Source of the DNA: an uncultured Acidobacteriota bacterium
GTDB lineage: Bacteria > Acidobacteriota > Thermoanaerobaculia > Gp7-AA8
Length of the DNA stretch: 64,000 nucleotides
Assembly (NCBI GenBank): GCA_963822445.1
Contig: CAWGHO010000001.1
Coordinates: forward strand, 928,001-992,000
Direction of reading: 5' to 3'
Both the position numbers and the translations under genes were made by a program. Shown here in pieces: positions 1,561 to 11,393 of the stretch. The notes below the pieces were generated by a model. That model had not been told where the DNA came from. It saw nothing but the letters and a program-made list of their open reading frames with translations, and did no database searches. How positions within the stretch are numbered: position 1 is the first letter of the stretch; every line of letters begins with the position of its first letter.

Positions 1561-2418
1561 ATGTCAGTTTCAGCCATGCCTTTCTCTTCAATCGGCGTAG
1601 CCCGCTCGTTCGCACCCGAGAACTCGCCATACGACTGCGTGATGGTCGATGTGACCCACCGGTGCAACATGACCTGCGCGAACTGCTATCTCCCCAACCG
1701 GGTCATTCCGGACATGGACGCGCAGTGGCTCTCCTCGATCCTGGCTCGTCTGCCGCGCGGCACCTTCATCCGCTTGACCGGCGGTGAGGCCACGCTGCGT
1801 CACGACCTGCCCGACATCATTCGCGAGGTTCGCAACCACGGCCACCATCCGGTGCTGCTGACCAACGGCCTGAAGCTCGCCGATCGCGCCTACGTGCGCG
1901 AGCTGAAGCGCGCCGGGATCCAGGTCACGTATCTTTCGTTCAGCGGCGGATTCGACGACGACCTGTACGAGAGCATCGATGAGATGCGCTGCGCGGACCG
2001 CAAGATCCGCGCGTTCGAGAACCTTCGCGTGGAGCACATGTTCACCTCGCTGGGCATGATCCTGATCCGTGACGTGAACGAGCATGAAGTGAAGAACGTG
2101 TGGAAGGCCGTGCGGCGCGCGCGGAACGTCCGCGAGCTGCACCTGCGCTCAGTCGGCGCGATGGGCCGGCACATGAACACGGTGCCGTTGACCGCCGAGG
2201 AGATGTTCGACGTGTTCTGTCGCGCCGCGGAGATTTCGCCCGACTCGATCGAGTTGCGCGAGCGCTCCGCATCGGCCGATGAGTTCTTCTTCGGCCGCGT
2301 GCACGTGCAGATGACCGAGTGGCCGGCGCTGGGCAGCAGCGTTCGCGGCCGGCTCACGCCCGAGGGGTTGATCGCGCCGTTCATGGAGCACGTGATCGCG
2401 AACGACGGCGGCTACTGA
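1561..2418 (+). CDS. Radical SAM enzyme
   Basis: CNMTCANC (CxxxCxxC), LTGGEAT and LTNGLKL motifs; no SPASM cysteines visible. Confidence 0.9.
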   Translation: MSVSAMPFSSIGVARSFAPENSPYDCVMVDVTHRCNMTCANCYLPNRVIPDMDAQWLSSILARLPRGTFIRLTGGEATLRHDLPDIIREVRNHGHHPVLLTNGLKLADRAYVRELKRAGIQVTYLSFSGGFDDDLYESIDEMRCADRKIRAFENLRVEHMFTSLGMILIRDVNEHEVKNVWKAVRRARNVRELHLRSVGAMGRHMNTVPLTAEEMFDVFCRAAEISPDSIELRERSASADEFFFGRVHVQMTEWPALGSSVRGRLTPEGLIAPFMEHVIANDGGY

Positions 2419-3122
2419 TGACGTTTGCGGAGCAGCTCTTCGCGGCCGCGCAGCCGCTTCCGATCGAGACGAATCCCTTCGTCGTTCAGGTGATGCGTGG
2501 CGAGGCGTCGCGCGAAGCGATCCGCTCCTTCGCACTGCACCTCGCCTCGGCGACCGAGTCATTCACGCGCGCTCTGTACGCGGTGCTCAGTGTCTGTACC
2601 GATCTGCGGGCGCGGCAATCCTTCATCGGCAACGTTCTGGAGGAGGAAGGCGCGACCGGATTCGCGCCCGGCGTTGGAGCCACGTTCGACGAACGGCGCC
2701 GCCATCCGGCCATGGCCCGGCGTTTCACTCGCGCGGCGGGCGCGGACGACCACGAGATCGACGCGTTCCGGGTCGCGCCGCCGAACTGGTTCGACCGGCA
2801 GATTCGCGCGGGCAACTGGATCGGACCCTTCGCCTACATCGCCGTCGGCACCGAAGCGAATGTGCCGCCGACGTACCGCCTCCTGATCCCGGCGCTCGAG
2901 AAGCACTACGGCTTCAGCGAGAGCGACCTCGAATTTCTCATCGAGCACCTCGGCGCCGACGATCGCCACGCCCTCGAGGGCGCCATGCTCATCGAATCAA
3001 TCGCCGATACCGACGCCGCCCGGAACCAGGCACTCGAAGGCGCCCGCCGCGGCGGACGAGGCTGGTGGAAGATCCTGGAGCGCCATCAATCGAGCCTGAA
3101 ACCGACCTTCATCTTCACCTGA
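2418..3122 (+). CDS. Heme-oxygenase-like diiron enzyme (PqqC/CADD/TenA-like, HDO superfamily)
   Basis: ATG overlaps rSAM stop (TGATG); NVLEEEG...H, GTE and EHLGADDRH match HDO E/H iron ligand pattern. Confidence 0.75.
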   Translation: MTFAEQLFAAAQPLPIETNPFVVQVMRGEASREAIRSFALHLASATESFTRALYAVLSVCTDLRARQSFIGNVLEEEGATGFAPGVGATFDERRRHPAMARRFTRAAGADDHEIDAFRVAPPNWFDRQIRAGNWIGPFAYIAVGTEANVPPTYRLLIPALEKHYGFSESDLEFLIEHLGADDRHALEGAMLIESIADTDAARNQALEGARRGGRGWWKILERHQSSLKPTFIFT

Positions 3123-3295
3123 TACTGGGAAACCTTCCCGTCGGTGACCTTTCCGCGCATCTCCGTGACCTCGAACCAATCCACGTGCCGGAGCGTCTCC
3201 GACGCCCGCTCCACGCCCGCGGAAACGGCCTTCGCGAATGATTCCGCCGAGGTCCCGACGATCTCCACCATCTTGTAGATCTTGTTGTCAGACAT
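3086..3295 (-). CDS. Dodecin (flavin-binding protein)
   Basis: YKMVEIVGTS...RASETLRHVDWFEV...YQVKMKVGF, 69 aa; GGAGG RBS. Confidence 0.93.
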   Translation of the reverse strand: MSDNKIYKMVEIVGTSAESFAKAVSAGVERASETLRHVDWFEVTEMRGKVTDGKVSQYQVKMKVGFRLD

Positions 3296-3367
3296 GAACT
3301 TCCATCCTCCCGAAGCGCGAATCTTAGTGCGGTCAAGCTAGAATTGGCCGTTACGGGTGAGACGGGA

Positions 3368-4393
3368 ATGAAGGCGGCAACCATCGAACGAGTCAAACGC
3401 CGCGTGCTGCAACAGGCGGTGGCGGAGAACGTCGACGTGATTCGCGGCCTGCCCCCGCGCGCCCTCCGTCCAGCAAACCGGCTGTTCCGGGTCTGGGTAA
3501 AACGCGCGCCGTTCGTACTCGTTCCCCTGTTGCTGGCGGGCTCGACCTACCTCGCACGCCAGGATGTGACACAGCCCGCGCACGTAGAGCAGACACTCCT
3601 GTCTGCTGCTTCTGCTGTTCCAAAGGCCGAGCAGACAGGAGTGTCTGCTCTACGGAATGCGCCGCTCGAGCGCGTCACCGCGGCGGCGTTCCCCCTCGCC
3701 GTGCGGCGGGTCGTCCTCGACGCCGGTCACGGCGGATCCGACCCCGGCGCGATCGCCGACAAGGTCATCGAGAAAGACGTCACCCTCGACATCGGCCGCC
3801 GCCTTCGCACGCTTCTCGAAAAAGAAGGCTTCGAAGTCGTCTTCACGCGCTCGGATGATCGGACGATTGCTCTTCGCGATCGCGCCGTCGCCGCGAACGC
3901 CTCGAAGAGCGACATCTTCGTTTCCATCCACGTCAACACGATCCTCAAACACACCGCCAGCCGCGGCGTGGAGACGTACTACCTCGGCCCGACGAACGAC
4001 GAGCGGCTGACAAAGATCGCCGCGGCGGAGAATCGCGTGTCGGGTTACTCGATCGCCGACATGCGCAAGCTCCTCGACGGCGTGTACGCCGACGCGCGGC
4101 GCGATGAGTCGCAGGAGTTGGCCAATGCGGTTCAGCGCCAGCTTTTCGCGACGTTGAAGGCGAACGACCCGGGTATCGAGAACTGGGGCGTGAAGCGCGC
4201 GCCGTTCATCGTGCTCGTGGCCACCGACATGCCGGCCATCCTCGCGGAGGTCGGCTGTATTTCGAACGACAAAGAAGCAGCGATGCTTGGGCGTCCGGAG
4301 CACCGTCAGAAGATCGCCACCGCGCTCTTCGAAGGCATTCGCGCGTATGCGACCGCCAACGACGCACCGCCCAGGCAGGAGAAAGGAACTTGA
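3368..4393 (+). CDS. N-acetylmuramoyl-L-alanine amidase (Amidase_3) with N-terminal membrane anchor
   Basis: VVLDAGHGGSDPGA, EKDVTL, FVSIHVN and PAILAEVG zinc-amidase motifs. Confidence 0.92.
   Translation: MKAATIERVKRRVLQQAVAENVDVIRGLPPRALRPANRLFRVWVKRAPFVLVPLLLAGSTYLARQDVTQPAHVEQTLLSAASAVPKAEQTGVSALRNAPLERVTAAAFPLAVRRVVLDAGHGGSDPGAIADKVIEKDVTLDIGRRLRTLLEKEGFEVVFTRSDDRTIALRDRAVAANASKSDIFVSIHVNTILKHTASRGVETYYLGPTNDERLTKIAAAENRVSGYSIADMRKLLDGVYADARRDESQELANAVQRQLFATLKANDPGIENWGVKRAPFIVLVATDMPAILAEVGCISNDKEAAMLGRPEHRQKIATALFEGIRAYATANDAPPRQEKGT
3583..3654. repeat. REP-type palindromic doublet inside amidase CDS
   Basis: Perfect 25-bp inverted repeat CGTAGAGCAGACACTCCTGTCTGCT (3583-3607) / AGCAGACAGGAGTGTCTGCTCTACG (3630-3654); each arm is GTAG plus an internal hairpin; 72 bp total. 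Confidence 0.8.
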
Positions 4394-4396
4394 TGC

Positions 4397-5416
4397 ATGG
4401 CTGAGCTTCTCCTCGTGGGAATCGACCTCGGCACATCGCGGAGCGCAATCTCCGCATCCAACGGCGAGCGGTTCGTCGTCGACAGTTTCGTCGGCTGGCC
4501 GCTGGACATGGTCGCGAAGAAAGTCCTCAAGCGCGACGTCCTCATCGGCCATGAGGCGGTTGCCAACCGCACCATGCTCGACCTCCACCGTCCTCTCGAG
4601 CGCGGCCTGCTCAAGGAAGGCTCGGAGAAAGACGTCGAGGCGGTGCGCGAGCTGCTCAAGTACCTGCTCAAGCTCGTCGGCGTGAACGGCAAGATCAAAG
4701 CTTCGAGCGTACGGGCGGTGGTTGGCGTTCCGGCCGCGGCGCTGCGCACGAACAAGCAGTACCTGCGCAATTCGATGAAGGGCATCGTCGACAGCCTGCT
4801 CATCGTCTCCGAGCCGTTCGCTGTTGCGTATGGGCTCGACGCGCTGCTGCACACGATGATCATCGACATCGGCGCGGGCACGACGGACTTCTGCGTGATG
4901 AAGGGCCGGTATCCGACCGAAGAGGATCAACGGACGTTGACCGTTGCCGGCGATTCCATCGACACGCAGCTTCTGAAGCTGATCGAAGAGCGCTACCCGC
5001 AGGCCAACGTGACCGTGTTCATGGTCCGCGAGTGGAAGGAAAAGTACAGCTTCGTCGGCGACCGCGAGGAGCGGTGCATCGTCACCGCGCCGGTGAAAGG
5101 CGTCCCGACGGAGCTCGACATCACCGCGGAAATGCGCACGGCGTGCGAAACGCTGCTGGCGCCGGTGACCGAGACGATGCTCGACCTGCTCGCGCGCGTC
5201 GAGCCGGAGTTCCAGGAGCGCGTTCGCCAGAACATCATCCTGTCCGGAGGCGGCGGCCTGATTCGCGGCCTGCCCCAGGCACTCGAGGCCGCGCTGAAGT
5301 CCGTCGGCGGAGGCAGCGTCCGCTACATGGACGATCCGGTGTTCGTCGGATCGGACGGCGGACTGGCGCTGGCCACTGATGCTCCGGAAGGGGACTGGGA
5401 AAAATTGACAGCGTGA
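4397..5416 (+). CDS. MamK-like bacterial actin (MreB/MamK family)
   Basis: GIDLGTSRS, VVGVPA, VSEPFAVAYGLD, IIDIGAGTTD, PTEEDQRTLTVAG, KEKYSFVG and QNIILSGGG; reads closer to MamK than to canonical MreB as I recall them. Confidence 0.85.
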   Translation: MAELLLVGIDLGTSRSAISASNGERFVVDSFVGWPLDMVAKKVLKRDVLIGHEAVANRTMLDLHRPLERGLLKEGSEKDVEAVRELLKYLLKLVGVNGKIKASSVRAVVGVPAAALRTNKQYLRNSMKGIVDSLLIVSEPFAVAYGLDALLHTMIIDIGAGTTDFCVMKGRYPTEEDQRTLTVAGDSIDTQLLKLIEERYPQANVTVFMVREWKEKYSFVGDREERCIVTAPVKGVPTELDITAEMRTACETLLAPVTETMLDLLARVEPEFQERVRQNIILSGGGGLIRGLPQALEAALKSVGGGSVRYMDDPVFVGSDGGLALATDAPEGDWEKLTA

Positions 5417-5420
5417 GTAC

Positions 5421-6286
<866 letters not shown>

Positions 6287-6305: not shown

Positions 6306-7742
6306 ATGAAGTCCTGGCTGTCCCTTCCCGTTGCCGCGCTCATTCTCCTCGCGGCATGTACGACCACCTCTCCCCCGCCGGCTGACCCGGTGACCGCCGC
6401 GCCGGTTACCGACGCGGCGCCGGCTCCCGCACCAGCGCCCGCTCCGGCACCTGCACCGATCGCGTATCAGGTCCCCGTCGAGTATCACAAGCTCGACAAC
6501 GGCCTGAAGGTCGTGTTGTCGCAGGATCGCACCGCACCGACGGTCGCCGTCGGCGTCTACTACAACATCGGTTTTCGCGTGGAGCCTCGCGACCGCACCG
6601 GCTTCGCCCACCTGTTCGAGCATCTGATGTTCCAAGGCTCGGACAACCTCGGCAAGATGGAGTTCATCAAGCTCATTCAGTCGAACGGCGGCGTCCTGAA
6701 CGGCTCCACGCGCTTCGACTTCACGAATTACTTCGAGATCGTCCCCGCGCACACGCTGCAGACCATCCTCTGGGCGGAAGCGGATCGCATGCGCAGCCTG
6801 GCGATCAACCAGGACAACCTGAAGAACCAGCAGGAAGTCGTGAAGAACGAGGTCCGCGTCAACGTCCTCAATCAGCCGTACGGCGGATTCCCCTGGCTGG
6901 ACATGCCTCAGTACGCGAACGCGAACTGGTACAACGCCCACAATTTCTACGGCGATCTGACCGACCTCGATGCGGCGACGCTCGAAGACGCGAGCAGCTT
7001 CTTCAAGACCTACTACGCGCCGAACAACGCCTCGATTGCGATCACCGGCGACTTCGATCCGGCGCAGGCACTCGCCTGGGTGAAGCAGTATTTCGGACCG
7101 ATTGCAGCGCAGCCGCAGCCCGCGAAGGTGGACATCAGCGAGCCCCGTCAGACCGCCGAGAAGCGCGCCACGAAGACAGACGACAAGGCCACACGTCCCG
7201 CGCTGGGCCTGGCCTGGCATGCGCCGGAACAGAACACTCCCGAGTACTACGCGATGGGTCTCATCGACCAGATCCTCGCCTCGGGCAAGGACAGCTGGCT
7301 GTATCAGGACGTGGTGCAGAAGCGCGGTCTCACCGGTGAGATCGGCTCGTCGATCAACCTCCTCGGCAACATGTTCAACATCGACGGCCCGACGCTCTAC
7401 ATGGCCTGGCTGTTCCACGACAAAGACAAGCCGGCCGACGACATCATCAAGGCCTTCGACGAGAACATCGTCCGCCTGCAGACGACCCAGGTCGACGCGG
7501 AGACGCTGAATCGCGCTCGCGTGAAGATGCGCTCCGCGCTGTACGGCGACATCGAAGGATTTTTTGGGTTCGGCCGCGCGGACCTGCTGGCCTCCTTCGC
7601 ACTGTTCGACGACGATCCGCACAAGATCAATCGCATCGAGTCGGAGTTCGCGAAGGTCACTCCCGAACTGATTCAGAAGACCGCGCAAGAGTACCTGCGC
7701 CCGACGAACCGCACGGTCCTCACGATCGTGCCGAAGGGATAA
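6306..7742 (+). CDS. M16 zinc peptidase, catalytic subunit (lipoprotein)
   Basis: HLFEH (HxxEH); lipobox LAAC followed by Pro/Ala linker; AGGAGG RBS. Confidence 0.92.
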   Translation: MKSWLSLPVAALILLAACTTTSPPPADPVTAAPVTDAAPAPAPAPAPAPAPIAYQVPVEYHKLDNGLKVVLSQDRTAPTVAVGVYYNIGFRVEPRDRTGFAHLFEHLMFQGSDNLGKMEFIKLIQSNGGVLNGSTRFDFTNYFEIVPAHTLQTILWAEADRMRSLAINQDNLKNQQEVVKNEVRVNVLNQPYGGFPWLDMPQYANANWYNAHNFYGDLTDLDAATLEDASSFFKTYYAPNNASIAITGDFDPAQALAWVKQYFGPIAAQPQPAKVDISEPRQTAEKRATKTDDKATRPALGLAWHAPEQNTPEYYAMGLIDQILASGKDSWLYQDVVQKRGLTGEIGSSINLLGNMFNIDGPTLYMAWLFHDKDKPADDIIKAFDENIVRLQTTQVDAETLNRARVKMRSALYGDIEGFFGFGRADLLASFALFDDDPHKINRIESEFAKVTPELIQKTAQEYLRPTNRTVLTIVPKG

Positions 7743-7745
7743 ATC

Positions 7746-9122
7746 ATGAAGAGAACGATTCTCACACTGGCTATCGCGCTCTTCGCGATCTCTGCGTTCG
7801 CGCAGAAACAAACACCGCCTGCCGCCGGAACGCCGAAGAACTTCGCGGTTCCACAGATCCGCAAAATTGATCTTCCGAACGGCCTGAAGGTGCGCTTCGT
7901 GCCGTACGGCGACATGCCCAAAGCGACCGTCCGCCTGGTGATTCAGACCGGCAACATGGATGAAGCAGAGAACGAGGTCTGGCTCGCTGATCTGACCGCC
8001 GATCTCCTCGAACAGGGCACGACGACGCGCAGCGCCGAACAGCTCGCGCGCGAGGCCGCGCTGATGGGCGGCGCGCTCGAAGTGAGCGTCAGCGCGAACC
8101 AGACGTCGATCGGCGCGGACGTGTTCTCCGAATCCGCACCCGCGGCGGTGAATCTCATCGCCGATGTCGCGAGAAATCCACGTTTCCCGGAATCGGAGCT
8201 CGCTCGCTTGAAGGCGGATCGTGTCCGCACGCTCTCCATCTCGCGCAGCACGCCGCAATCCGCCGCGCAGGAGAAGTTCTACAGCGTGATTTATCCGAAT
8301 CACCCTTATGGCCGCGTCTATCCGACCGAGGCCATGTTGCAGGGGTACACGCTCGATCAGGTGAAGGCGTTCCACGATCGCAGTTTCGGCGCGGCACGCT
8401 CGTTCGTGTACGTCGTCGGACGGTTCGATCAAAACGCCGTGGAGCGCGCGATTCGCGACGCGTTCGGCAACTGGAAGGCGGGCAGCACCGCGACGCGCGC
8501 CACCATCACGCCGGTCAGCAAGCGCGGTGTGTATTTCGTCGAGCGTCCCGGCGCCGTGCAGTCGACGCTGTACATCGGCCTCCCGGTCATCGATCCATCC
8601 AATCCCGAATTCCTGCCGCTTACAGTCATGAACTCGCTCCTCGGCGGATCGTTCGGCTCGCGCATCACCAGCAACATCCGCGAGCAGAAGGGCTACACCT
8701 ACTCGCCGCAAGGCGTACTTCAGGGGCGGCTCGGGACGGGCACCTGGATCGAGATCGCGGACGTGACGACGAACGTGACCGGCCCGTCGATCAAGGAGAT
8801 CGTCGGCGAGATCGACCGCCTCCGTAACGAAGCACCGACGGCCGCGGAACTGACCGGCATCCAGAATTACCTGGCCGGCACGTTCGTGCTCCGCAATTCC
8901 TCACGCAGCGGCATCGCCAACCAGCTCTCATTCCTCGATCTGTACGGAATGACCGAGGACTACTTGCGGACGTACGTGCAGAAGGTTTACGCGCTGACCC
9001 CGGCGGACATTCAGCGCCTGGCGCGAACGTACATCGACCCGGGCAAACTGGCGATCGTGGTGGTCGGCGACCCGGCCACGGTGCCGGATCAGATCAAGAC
9101 GTACGGGGAAATTGTGCGGTAG
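7746..9122 (+). CDS. M16 peptidase, non-catalytic partner subunit
   Basis: M16 fold (LPNGLKV, LGGSFGSRITSNIREQKGYTY); HxxEH absent; signal peptide. Confidence 0.88.
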   Translation: MKRTILTLAIALFAISAFAQKQTPPAAGTPKNFAVPQIRKIDLPNGLKVRFVPYGDMPKATVRLVIQTGNMDEAENEVWLADLTADLLEQGTTTRSAEQLAREAALMGGALEVSVSANQTSIGADVFSESAPAAVNLIADVARNPRFPESELARLKADRVRTLSISRSTPQSAAQEKFYSVIYPNHPYGRVYPTEAMLQGYTLDQVKAFHDRSFGAARSFVYVVGRFDQNAVERAIRDAFGNWKAGSTATRATITPVSKRGVYFVERPGAVQSTLYIGLPVIDPSNPEFLPLTVMNSLLGGSFGSRITSNIREQKGYTYSPQGVLQGRLGTGTWIEIADVTTNVTGPSIKEIVGEIDRLRNEAPTAAELTGIQNYLAGTFVLRNSSRSGIANQLSFLDLYGMTEDYLRTYVQKVYALTPADIQRLARTYIDPGKLAIVVVGDPATVPDQIKTYGEIVR

Positions 9123-9590: not shown

Positions 9591-11393
9591 ATGCAACCTG
9601 GCGACTCTCTCGACGGCCGGTACACGATCATCGGCCAGCTCGGCGCGGGCGGGATGGGCGAGGTCTACAAGGCCACGCACAACTTCCTCGGCGCCACGCG
9701 CGTCATCAAGATCATCCATCCCCACATCTCCGGACGGCAGGACGCGCACGAGCGCTTCCTCCGCGAGGCGCGCATCGCGACCAAAGTCCAGCATCCCAAC
9801 GTGGCCACGCTGCACGACTTCGCGTCGCTTTCCGACGGCTCGCATTACATGGTCTGGGAGTTCATCGACGGGGAGAACCTCGCCCAGCGCCTCCGCACGC
9901 GCGGGACGCTGCCGCCGCGGCAGGCCGTGCGCATCGCCATCCAGTCCTTGCGCGGACTCGAAGCCATTCACGCCGCGGGAATCATTCATCGCGACATCAG
10001 CCCCGAAAATCTGATGATCACCGCCGACGACTCGGTCAAGATCATCGACCTCGGCGTAGCCAAGATGGACGATCCCGATGCCGTGTCGCAGACGCGCACG
10101 GGCATCTTCGTCGGCAAGCTCCGTTACGCCGCCCCCGAGCAGCTCGGTTTCCTTCCCGAGGACGAGAAAATCGACGGCCGCACCGATCTGTACGCGATGG
10201 CCATGGTCCTCGTGGAATTGCTGACGGGACGGCCGCCGTACGAGGCCAAGTCGCCGCACGAGTACTTCCTCCATCACGCTCGCGAAGTGCAGCGGACGAC
10301 GGTCTCACTGCCGCCGACGCTGCCCGGCAGCAGCGCGCTGGTCGCCGTTCTCGAAAAAGCGCTGGAGCGCGATCGCAAGGACCGTTTCGCCACCGCACGC
10401 GACTTCGCCGCGGCGCTCGAGGAAATCGAGAGGACGCTGCCCGTTGCCGTCGACACGCCGACGGTGATGACGCCGCTGGATACGCCGACGCTCGTCACGC
10501 CGCTCGACGGCGATGAAACGTTCAAGCAGCGTGCGACGAGACCGGGAACGACGTCGCAGAAGCCGATTCCTGTTGCTGCGCCGGCCACGGCGGCCGGCCT
10601 GACGCTCGCGTCGGGCGTTCCCACGATTCAGACGCCTCTGCCGGAGGCGTCCATACCGGTCGCCAGGCAGCGGTCGGGGATCAATCCGGCGTACGTCATC
10701 GGCTTCGTGGTGCTCCTGCTGATCCTCGCCGGCGGCGCGCTGGCGTACAAGATCACCTCGGCGAGGCCGACGATCGAGCCCGAACGGAAACCGGCGGCGA
10801 CTGTCGCGCAATCAAGACCGTCGCAATCGAGCATCACCGCGACACCGGATCCGATCATCACCGCGACCACCGCCACGACCGCGCCGGCGAATCAGATCGT
10901 GCCGCCTTCGCCGACACTCACCGCGACGATCGCGCCTCCCATCGTGGCGCCTCGCATCGTCAAGAACGAGCCGCGCGCGGAGGACCTGCGAAAACCCGAG
11001 CCTGAGCCGGAGCCTGCCCGCGTTCGCAGCGTGAGTGTGTACGTCGACGGCCCCGGCAGCGTCGGCGCCAACGAACGCGCGCTCGCGCGGCTGGGCCAGG
11101 AGCTCCGTGGCGTGACGAAGGTCGCGCTTCACGCAGGCGCGTTGCAGGTGCAGGTGTACCGCGCGATTCATCGCTATCTGCCGGACCTCGAGTTCGACGA
11201 AGAAAGCGACGTGGTGATCACGTTCGACAGCACGCCGCAACGGCTGAGCCTCGACAAGAACGAGATCTCCGCGCGCGTCACGATCGAAAAAGCCGGCCGG
11301 GTGATCTTCCGCTACGAGCTGCCGCGGCACTACGACCGCAGCGCGGCACCGGACGCGTTCGCACGGACGCTGGCCGAGGCTTTCGGTAACTAG
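9591..11393 (+). CDS. Hanks-type Ser/Thr protein kinase with TM helix and C-terminal extracytoplasmic region
   Basis: GAGGMGEVY, HRDISPEN, DLGVAK and YAAPEQ; TM segment YVIGFVVLLLILAGGALAY. Confidence 0.93.
   Translation: MQPGDSLDGRYTIIGQLGAGGMGEVYKATHNFLGATRVIKIIHPHISGRQDAHERFLREARIATKVQHPNVATLHDFASLSDGSHYMVWEFIDGENLAQRLRTRGTLPPRQAVRIAIQSLRGLEAIHAAGIIHRDISPENLMITADDSVKIIDLGVAKMDDPDAVSQTRTGIFVGKLRYAAPEQLGFLPEDEKIDGRTDLYAMAMVLVELLTGRPPYEAKSPHEYFLHHAREVQRTTVSLPPTLPGSSALVAVLEKALERDRKDRFATARDFAAALEEIERTLPVAVDTPTVMTPLDTPTLVTPLDGDETFKQRATRPGTTSQKPIPVAAPATAAGLTLASGVPTIQTPLPEASIPVARQRSGINPAYVIGFVVLLLILAGGALAYKITSARPTIEPERKPAATVAQSRPSQSSITATPDPIITATTATTAPANQIVPPSPTLTATIAPPIVAPRIVKNEPRAEDLRKPEPEPEPARVRSVSVYVDGPGSVGANERALARLGQELRGVTKVALHAGALQVQVYRAIHRYLPDLEFDEESDVVITFDSTPQRLSLDKNEISARVTIEKAGRVIFRYELPRHYDRSAAPDAFARTLAEAFGN

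Follow-up and report, generated by a model that had tools for sequence, protein, structure and literature searches.

What does an actin resembling the magnetosome protein MamK do in a bacterium that carries no magnetosome cluster, and why does its gene follow so closely upon that of a cell-wall amidase? Both questions are raised by a 64-kb stretch of DNA (called the window below, at its whole length: positions 928,001 to 992,000 of contig CAWGHO010000001.1) from an uncultured member of the Thermoanaerobaculia (Acidobacteriota), whose genome assembly comprises 6.0 Mb in 3 contigs and is 94.7% complete. Our data show that the amidase and the actin form a real unit, which is conserved in four or more phyla and, within the reach of our searches, has not been described. 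We consider it somewhat probable that the two genes make up one functional unit in which an actin filament positions the peptidoglycan amidase through docking of the amidase tail on the actin. The parts of the pair, in window positions, are as follows.

3368-4393, plus strand: gene of a putatively bitopic N-acetylmuramoyl-L-alanine amidase, 341 aa from the ATG at 3368 (PF01520)
3389-3439, plus strand: amidase tail motif, proposed actin-docking peptide, residues 8-24, an amphipathic helix centred on Asn21
3503-3559, plus strand: single hydrophobic segment of the amidase, about residues 46-64, interpreted as a transmembrane signal-anchor whose N-terminal side would face inwards
3569-3691, plus strand: amidase linker, residues 68-108, low-confidence and length-variable, from the membrane segment to the catalytic domain
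3710-4342, plus strand: Amidase_3 catalytic domain, apparently intact, residues 115-325 (Pfam)
4378-4388, plus strand: Shine-Dalgarno-like site of the actin gene, lying within the end of the amidase gene (sequence reading)
4397-5416, plus strand: gene of a MamK/BeeR-superfamily actin-like ATPase of the amidase-linked lineage, 339 aa (NCBIfam, PDB, AlphaFold2 (AF2)/Foldseek)

The actin belongs to the MamK/BeeR superfamily

An initial annotation of this DNA had placed a 339-aa actin 3 bp past the amidase stop, and the list of open reading frames (ORFs) and the sequence agree with it: the amidase stop TGA (4391-4393) is followed by tgc and then by the actin ATG at 4397, which has an AGGAG-type ribosome site 9-19 nt before it. 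All of the motifs on which that annotation relied (GIDLGTSRS, VGWPLDMVAKKVL, EPFAVAYGLD, DIGAGTTDFC, KEKYSFVG and a C-terminal W..L) are present in the translation. It had further called the protein MamK-clade and not MreB. Among the NCBIfam hidden Markov models (HMMs), the window actin scores 376.7 bits with MamK (NF040964, cut-off 400), 217.5 bits with BeeR (NF053558, cut-off 530) and only 66.8 and 73.3 bits with the MreB models TIGR00904 (cut-off 365.75) and PRK13927 (cut-off 293). For reference, the MamK model gives 548 bits to Magnetospirillum MamK and 425 and 412 bits to two amidase-linked relatives (P0126 and P0148). Pfam returns general models only (MreB_Mbl, 82.5 bits; Actin, 38.2 bits), together with weak Alp7A_C and ParM-type traces. 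A sequence search of the PDB finds MamK structures 5LJW, 5JYG and 5LJV at 260-261 bits (E about 1e-76), BeeR at 130.6 bits and all MreB entries at 53 bits or less.

Structure prediction gives the same order. The AF2 model of the actin has a predicted local distance difference test score (pLDDT) of 92.4, and its best Foldseek match is the MamK filament subunit 5LJV, with template modelling (TM) scores of 0.91/0.95, a root-mean-square deviation of 1.8 Å and about 40-41% identity; BeeR comes second (TM score 0.86) and eukaryotic actins follow. The phosphate-1, phosphate-2 and adenosine motifs and the Glu of the SEPF motif are intact, residues D10, G12, D157, G159, G284 and E139 being conserved and E139 aligning to MamK E143; we take these six to be nucleotide-binding or catalytic residues. 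In the AF2 model the first strand begins at residue 5, and the protein has no N-terminal extension of the BeeR type. The window actin is therefore a member of the MamK/BeeR superfamily and not an MreB, its 66.8 bits standing against 519.9 bits for the genome's own MreB. The term MamK-clade holds only in the wide sense, because the score lies under the MamK cut-off and the protein branches outside the clade that holds the magnetosome-cluster sequences.

To place it within the family, we exhaustively searched representatives clustered at 50% identity and retained 188 proteins at E <= 1e-30, the nearest named ones coming from Nitrospira, Verrucomicrobiota, Gemmatimonadota and ANME-2 (anaerobic methanotrophic) archaea. 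A survey of one genome per species, queried with an alignment from the magnetosome clade, yielded 80 loci. At least one Mam gene other than mamK or mamA lies nearby in 23 of them (two or more in 21), an amidase lies directly upstream in four (Nitrospirota L055, Schekmanibacteria L060, Gemmatimonadota L069 and L075), and 53 have neither, 39 of these being from Planctomycetota. The four amidase-linked loci hold the actins nearest to that of the window (48-49% identity), followed by those of Planctomycetota L057 (48.0%) and L103 (47.5%).

A tree of 81 rows (IQ-TREE quick search, LG+C20), rooted on the very long branch of the genome's own MreB, puts the BeeR-like representatives, labelled by BeeR HMM scores of 337-510 bits, in a basal group of their own. 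All 12 amidase-linked rows fall just above the base in three groups whose mutual order the tree leaves unresolved, and all 20 magnetosome-cluster rows fall in a 58-row clade (Shimodaira-Hasegawa-like approximate likelihood ratio test, 87) without any amidase-linked row, a clade that also contains Planctomycetota, archaeal sequences and long fusion proteins. A single amidase-linked clade was not rejected by the approximately unbiased (AU) test (p-AU 0.21), which permits such a clade and does not show it. The initial placement of the protein outside MreB stands on the HMM scores, and the tree takes it out of the MamK clade of the magnetosome clusters. An earlier FastTree arrangement with the BeeR-like sequences as sister of the window actin's clade (support 91) was not kept in IQ-TREE.

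The survey also revealed MamK-family actins in other settings. Fourteen representatives among P0132-P0159 are proteins of 523-1232 aa with the MamK-like domain at the C-terminus, and their N-terminal parts measure 190-900 residues; among ten fusions of 700-1232 aa that were scanned, 9 have no Pfam family in this part. One 768-aa FtsZ-MamK fusion (P0194) is deposited as 'Magnetosome protein MamK'. Ca. Methanoperedens (L079) and ANME-2/Methanosarcinales (P0145 and its cluster members) carry actins of the family that form a strongly supported archaeal clade. The 39 Planctomycetota loci, which lie within L056-L114 and include anammox bacteria (for example Ca. Kuenenia, L098 8562-9581, and Brocadiaceae, L082 and L106), have neither Mam genes nor an amidase near their MamK-family actins.

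A genome with its own mreBCD and no magnetosome gene set

The genome encodes one MamK-like protein. Its closest homologues, at 87-98% identity, are publicly annotated as 'rod shape-determining protein MreB', and a canonical mreB (519.9 bits, above cut-off), followed by mreC and a weak mreD, lies on contig 2. Because the genome has this separate mreBCD, the MamK-like protein is an extra cytoskeletal element beside MreB.

HMMs for MamB, M, I, Q, P, O and E gave no match above cut-off (0/7) in the 94.7%-complete genome, and the sub-threshold matches are of the same kind as in E. coli and other control genomes. Matches to the MamB/M, MamQ and MamE/O/P families lie at C2:987 kb, C3:1.84 Mb, C2:910 kb, C1:1.43 Mb and other sites (contig:position); the nearest is that at C1:1.43 Mb, and none is within the window (C1:928001-992000). 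The same pipeline recovers MamI in a Magnetospirillum genome (108.7 bits), and in the control locus L037 of Magnetospirillum sp. UT-4 each of MamE, L, M, O, P, A, Q, B, I and K exceeds its curated cut-off. When proteins of that locus were searched against the genome by tblastn, MamH, J, L, M, N, O, P, R, S and T had no match, and MamE, A, Q and B had scattered generic ones (HtrA-type proteases, TPR proteins, one LemA, one weak cation diffusion facilitator) on other contigs or far from the actin. The ORFs of 10 magnetosome loci from Proteobacteria, Nitrospirota, Desulfobacterota and Nitrospinota led to no genome site that gathers three distinct cluster genes; in the window they match only the actin (with its antisense shadow) and a Ser/Thr kinase. 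These searches, along with the position of mreBCD on contig 2, bear out the initial statement that the 64 kb hold no mamAB-type genes and no mreC or mreD.

The actin gene is strictly linked to the amidase gene

If the linkage mattered, one would expect it to be conserved, and it is. Among 40 genomes of relatives, sampled in addition to the window's own, the actin was found in 22 of 24 from the same genus (the two without it being 99% and 71% complete) and in 6 of 16 from other genera of the class and order. An amidase lies directly upstream on the same strand in all 27 loci obtained from those genomes, six of them at 58-65% actin identity. In an even sample of Acidobacteriota the actin is present in 25 of 301 genomes, mostly of this class with a few other families, and each of the 24 loci obtained has the amidase upstream at gaps of 8-148 nt, with 19 of the 24 coming from genomes outside the first sample. 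Taken together, all 46 acidobacterial genomes whose loci were examined besides the window's own show the linkage, as do the 4 loci from three other phyla described above.

Three loci of the same genus differ in the reading of their frames. In L023 (510-2576) and L025 (540-2552) the amidase frame is open through the actin gene, giving 689 and 671 aa, which in DNA of such high GC content may reflect no more than a lost or shifted stop. In L034 (G003:C2:3918000-3934000; genome 86% complete, 4 contigs) the actin match is in two overlapping pieces, one with 4 in-frame TGA codons, and the neighbouring M16 peptidase is likewise in two pieces; this looks more like assembly indel errors than a true pseudogene.

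The amidase is apparently catalytically intact and probably anchored in the membrane

The sole Pfam match of the amidase is Amidase_3 (PF01520; 167.4 bits, gathering cut-off 27) over residues 115-325, and there is no AMIN domain. None of the equivalog models CwlD, AmiA, AmiB and AmiC reaches its cut-off, CwlD coming closest (122 versus 221.55 bits). Foldseek finds E. coli AmiA (8C2O) as best match (E 1e-17), then C. difficile amidases including CwlD (7RAG), and further AmiC (4BIN), AmiB (8C0J) and LytH (7TJ4). Across 20 amidases from four phyla, residues H121, E135, H188 and E294 never vary (20 of 20). By comparison with AmiC/CwlV-type enzymes we take them to be the zinc ligands and the catalytic Glu, and the enzyme is apparently catalytically intact.

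The AF2 model of the amidase (pLDDT 76.8) consists of a helix at residues 3-25, a second at 35-65, a disordered linker at 68-108 and a compact domain at 114-332. The linker has pLDDT below 50 and corresponds to gappy, variable alignment columns, and helix 35-65 contains the only hydrophobic segment outside the catalytic core. Residues 1-45 hold 11 Lys and Arg against 3 Asp and Glu, so by the positive-inside rule the tail would be cytoplasmic and the enzyme domain outside. Reading from an alternative TTG at 3344 would lengthen the protein by 8 residues; since orthologues start at an aligned Met, the ATG at 3368 is the likelier start.

The amidase tail carries a conserved motif and is predicted to dock on the actin

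The tail of the window amidase reads ...VLQQAVAENVDVIRG. Its motif is a helix of basic and hydrophobic residues (AF2 helix 3-25), in which N21 is invariant and V18 at least 90% conserved in the 20 amidases. We modelled the actin (26-row alignment) together with tail residues 1-45 (20-row alignment). The predicted complex scored 0.82 (runs 0.80, 0.82 and 0.82), the best of 3 controls scored 0.55, and the two controls in which the tail was replaced scored 0.00. The mark used for such scores is reached by 58 of 80 solved complexes and by 2 of 110 mismatched pairs, counts that apply only approximately here, since the alignments were ours. At least 77% of contacts are common to the runs, and the partner pLDDT is at least 66.

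On the tail, the predicted contacts comprise residues 6, 9-18, 20-22, 24-25 and 27, and so include both N21 and V18. On the actin they comprise residues 134-137, 141, 145, 148 and 150-151, in the strand and helix around SEPF, together with 170-172 and with 325-337 in the C-terminal helix. By its correspondence with actin and ParM, we take this site to be the hydrophobic cleft that separates subdomains IA and IIA and receives ParR and WH2-type helices. On the strength of this model, the cytoplasmic tail of the amidase probably docks on the actin.

Similar motifs lie beside other MamK-family genes

Scanning the 80 surveyed loci (1.27 Mb, six frames) with a strict 13-residue version of the motif gave 9 matches, of which 6 lie on the actin's strand within 1.2 kb upstream of it. 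Three of the six are the amidases of L060, L069 and L075 and one is a tiny frame in L074; the remaining two are the C-termini of unrelated ORFs that immediately precede the actin gene, one in a magnetosome locus of Nitrospirota (L090) and one in Beggiatoa (L101). A looser 10-residue pattern has 6 such upstream matches against 1.1 expected. Within the actin representatives themselves, searched for an extension or fusion that would carry it, the strict motif is absent (0 in 309 proteins).

The L090 protein has homologues directly 5' of mamK in Ca. Magnetominusculus and in four Desulfobacterota/deltaproteobacterial magnetosome loci, and all of them end in a similar helix. In most Planctomycetota loci, too, the upstream ORF ends with the same signature, for example ...VLIRVFNENLDLIRG and ...KKKELMAGIFQANLKLQKK. 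When the final 45 residues of the ORF directly 5' of the actin were compared with a 12-residue pattern of it, 43 of the 80 loci matched, with a background of 8 among 9,543 other ORF ends of the same loci. By group, the matching loci number 32 of 39 in Planctomycetota, 2 of 3 in Nitrospirota and 1 of 1 in Omnitrophota, magnetosome clusters of the latter two phyla included. The motif-bearing Planctomycetota ORFs are 180-580 aa long. Among motif-bearing upstream proteins, NCBIfam gave no convincing match (0/6) and Pfam none in 7 of 8; one protein has a PAS domain and one has weak matches below the gathering cut-off.

An amidase thus bears a helix centred on Asn at its N-terminus, unrelated proteins bear one at their C-termini, and all of them are encoded beside a MamK-family gene; this is hard to account for unless the helix concerns the actin. 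A wider idea, which we put forward tentatively and regard as possible rather than probable, is that MamK-superfamily actins share one docking code, an Asn-centred helix at the terminus of the protein encoded upstream, and that lineages vary the cargo. The code would be a helix of the form hydrophobic-hydrophobic-x-x-hydrophobic-V/F-x-x-N-hydrophobic that plugs into the actin's hydrophobic cleft. Its cargo would be small coiled-coil proteins of the magnetosome clusters in Nitrospirota, Desulfobacterota and Omnitrophota, uncharacterised proteins in Planctomycetota (including anammox bacteria), and the peptidoglycan amidase in Acidobacteriota, Gemmatimonadota, Nitrospirota and Schekmanibacteria. 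As the amidase-linked lineage lies near the base of the family, the steering of wall hydrolysis would then possibly be older than the alignment of magnetosomes.

The survey also brought to light a family of small coiled-coil proteins of 140-220 aa (L090 9448-9918, L104 5556-6095, L074 9492-9911, L076 7650-8174, L093 9302-9793 and L086 8462-9124), which is encoded directly 5' of mamK in magnetosome clusters of Nitrospirota and Desulfobacterota and whose members end in a helix of the same kind. Four of the six were scanned against NCBIfam and that of L090 against Pfam, in each case without a match. These proteins are candidate MamK adaptors in deep-branching magnetotactic bacteria.

A filament that would position wall hydrolysis

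Our data show where the actin belongs in its family, that it has no magnetosome genes for company, that its gene is strictly linked to that of the amidase, that the residues for catalysis and ATP binding are intact and that the tail motif is conserved. From this we infer a model that covers topology, binding, filament formation and cell-biological purpose. The amidase would be a bitopic inner-membrane protein whose basic cytoplasmic tail (about 45 residues) is joined by one span and a flexible linker to a periplasmic catalytic domain of the AmiA/B/C type, and the actin would be a cytoplasmic ATP-dependent polymer working alongside the ordinary MreB. Through the docking of the Asn-centred helix on the actin, at a site that by position would be the hydrophobic cleft of subdomains IA/IIA, the filament would gather, place or move the amidase in the membrane, and this placement would decide where stem peptides are cut from peptidoglycan. 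Of the two possibilities raised by the initial annotation, the linkage and the missing Mam genes favour the first, a non-magnetosome filament of MamK type that perhaps positions wall hydrolysis.

The purpose of such positioning may be hinted at by the genes that follow the pair. Ten downstream genes scanned in diverse amidase-linked loci included two with SPOR domains (L030, and L055 with a receiver domain), two with PilZ (L032 and L129), one with DUF4384 and DUF4214, and five with no Pfam match. SPOR domains bind peptide-stripped glycan strands, which amidases generate at division sites. Given that genes with this domain come after the pair in some lineages, our guess is that the pair serves septal or polar wall splitting; control by cyclic di-GMP is possible in some lineages.

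Several observations weigh against this model. Searches did not find the pair in 2 of 24 genomes of the same genus or in 10 of 16 from other genera of the class and order, and it is therefore dispensable. The membrane segment is moderately hydrophobic (Kyte-Doolittle 19-residue maximum 1.47), and the genome has a second Amidase_3 paralogue on contig 2 (39% identity), which makes the actin-linked amidase a specialised extra copy. It was the control with the tail kept and the actin swapped for an unrelated protein that scored 0.55, so the tail is to the model a generally sticky, promiscuous helix; solved helix-in-cleft complexes of actin or ParM exist, and the pass of the predicted complex may partly reflect likeness to them. 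Within the amidase-linked set, conservation of the docking residues exceeds that of the remaining protein only slightly (identity 0.70 versus 0.60), and in other clades it does not. The same cleft takes part in the longitudinal contacts of actin-like filaments, and binding of the tail might for that reason be limited to filament ends or monomers. Regarding the motif elsewhere, the 12-residue pattern was written after the sequences had been seen, its 43 of 80 loci are not 43 independent events since the Planctomycetota carriers are partly homologous, of 21 amidase tails it fits no more than 12, besides that of the window itself, and it has no match in Magnetospirillum-type loci with their MamJ-type partners.

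Other explanations of the pair share part of this evidence. The amidase, or its peptidoglycan-binding domain, could fix the filament to the wall while the filament's task lies elsewhere, for instance with a cytoplasmic cargo or a polar structure. The linkage and docking evidence apply equally to such an anchor, and the motif-bearing partners in other clades, being non-enzymatic coiled-coil or uncharacterised proteins, suggest a general adaptor; however, catalytic residues that are invariant over four phyla argue for a selected enzyme activity and no other conserved cargo gene accompanies the pair in the loci examined, and we regard this explanation as rather unlikely. The two proteins could also be co-expressed without contact, the actin having another target and the tail serving membrane insertion or another partner. 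The score of the unrelated-protein control and the modestly raised conservation of the interface would fit, but an adjacency that is strict down to 48% actin identity in four phyla, and a similar motif on unrelated proteins beside MamK-family genes, make mere co-expression fairly improbable. We think it very unlikely that the first 65 residues act as a long export signal of Sec or Tat type that is cleaved off, which would make contact with a cytoplasmic filament impossible. E. coli AmiA and AmiC are Tat substrates, and the order of a basic stretch and one hydrophobic segment is that of a signal peptide, but the Arg-rich conserved helix lies about 33 residues before the hydrophobic segment and does not abut it, no small-x-small cleavage site was seen by eye after the segment, and the Asn motif recurs at the C-termini of unrelated proteins beside related actins.

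The remaining two explanations concern the actin itself. A second elongation actin of the MreB type is what the public annotation of the orthologues would imply, and MreB_Mbl, at 82.5 bits, is the only general Pfam model in its favour; against scores of 66.8-73.3 bits with the MreB HMMs (cut-offs 293-366) and 376.7 with MamK, an MreB that forms a long outgroup branch, the lack of adjoining mreCD and the presence of the true mreBCD elsewhere, this has an extremely low probability. The second possibility of the initial annotation, a dispersed magnetosome gene set, or a remnant of one, draws on the similarity to MamK only. No Mam family of seven was above cut-off, ten Magnetospirillum Mam proteins were without a tblastn match, no Mam-cluster genes lie together anywhere in the 94.7%-complete genome and the actin branches outside the magnetosome-cluster clades, so that we give this possibility next to no probability. 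Positioning of the amidase by the filament thus remains the reading we prefer.

Neighbouring genes

Two further genes adjoin the pair.

5421-6227, plus strand: alpha/beta-hydrolase gene with hydrophobic N-terminus, 268 aa (Pfam Hydrolase_4/Abhydrolase_1)
3089-3295, minus strand: dodecin gene, divergent from the amidase gene and bounding the unit, 69 aa (PF07311, 100.5 bits)

The hydrolase gene begins 4 nt past the actin stop. It is found downstream of the pair in 13 of 21 same-genus loci (some being too short to show it) and in none of 6 loci from other families of the class; it is a genus-level neighbour and not part of the module core. Between 2900 and 6400 there is no terminator-like site on the plus strand, and a consensus scan found no sigma-70-like promoter, the consensus being uninformative for this phylum. 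GC content is flat over the window (0.62-0.67), which gives no sign of an island. Twenty sequencing runs share sampled words with this DNA, at shares of 0.20 or less, and none of them is RNA.

The neighbours in the window (dodecin, an M16 peptidase pair, ExbD, a Ser/Thr kinase and rhodanese) offer no hint at the function of the unit. On one side, a radical SAM gene (1561-2418, plus strand) runs into the 5' end of a gene for an 'iron-containing redox enzyme' of Haem_oxygenase_2 type (2319-3122, plus strand), after which comes the convergent dodecin gene (3089-3295, minus strand); the three may be a small modification or cofactor cassette, apparently unrelated to the amidase-actin pair. On the other side are the M16 peptidase gene pair (6306-9122, plus strand) and the gene of a 600-aa Ser/Thr kinase with a long non-catalytic C-terminal part (9591-11393, plus strand). 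In the relatives L018, L026 and L033 a Ser/Thr kinase gene is found directly 3' of the actin gene, in place of the hydrolase.

Significance and comparison with known systems

Known bacterial actins guide wall synthesis (MreB), division (FtsA), plasmids (ParM) and organelles (MamK), and known control of amidases is through periplasmic or membrane activators. We know of no description of a wall-cutting amidase controlled by a cytoplasmic actin filament, and such a cytoskeletal route would be a new answer to the problem of aiming dangerous hydrolases. The docking motif, if real, would offer a handle on the cargo of MamK-like filaments in Planctomycetota, giant sulfur bacteria and deep-branching magnetotactic bacteria. 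A practical consequence concerns gene names: as mamK is reported to have served as a marker gene for magnetotactic bacteria, and as the orthologues are annotated as MreB, the labels 'MamK' and 'MreB' in soil metagenomes are misleading. We found no description of an amidase with a MamK-type actin in the full-text literature, a body of text outside which subscription journals and supplements lie. The word 'amidase' is absent from the texts of PMC11929497, PMC10653835, 10.1101/817700 and 10.1101/2022.04.11.487978.

The closest known counterpart is MamK (5LJV, 5LJW, 5JYG) with its adaptor MamJ. MamK is the best match in sequence and fold, has the same ATP motifs and SEPF Glu, and the presumed partner is encoded directly upstream in both cases; unlike MamK, the window actin is found in a genome without magnetosome genes, and its partner is a peptidoglycan amidase rather than an acidic organelle adaptor. 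BeeR (8R2N), second-best by HMM, sequence and fold, is likewise a MamK relative in non-magnetotactic bacteria. The BeeR of Verrucomicrobiota is described as a three-stranded tubular actin with a disordered N-terminal extension of 30-50 residues as hallmark (PMC11929497). That extension is missing from the window actin, which differs from BeeR also in its HMM score (217.5 versus 530) and in its separate tree group. Other MamK relatives reported in non-magnetotactic lineages are a protein of Saltatorellus ferox that forms filaments in E. coli and Magnetospirillum (bioRxiv 10.1101/817700) and mamK-like ORFs of Beggiatoaceae and Thiomargarita (bioRxiv 10.1101/2022.04.11.487978), and a review treats planctobacterial MamK as an actin ancestor (PMC7203096). 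The Planctomycetota and Beggiatoa actins fall in other clades of the tree than the amidase-linked ones.

The predicted docking may be compared with ParM-ParR and actin-WH2, where a short amphipathic helix of the partner sits in the IA/IIA cleft, a working analogy in which the predicted contacts of the window actin presumably fall on the corresponding elements, namely the helix after SEPF, the G-R-Y loop and the C-terminal helix. Unlike ParM-ParR, the window locus is chromosomal, has no centromere or ParR, and would have a membrane enzyme as cargo. On the side of the enzyme, AmiA/B/C with EnvC/NlpD, LytH-ActH and CwlD-GerS share the catalytic fold (8C2O, 4BIN, 8C0J, 7TJ4, 7RAG), and LytH and CwlD are, as proposed for the window amidase, membrane-anchored amidases, dependent on a partner protein. 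The partners of these enzymes act from the outer side of the membrane or within it, whereas the partner proposed here would be a cytoplasmic filament in contact with a cytoplasmic tail.

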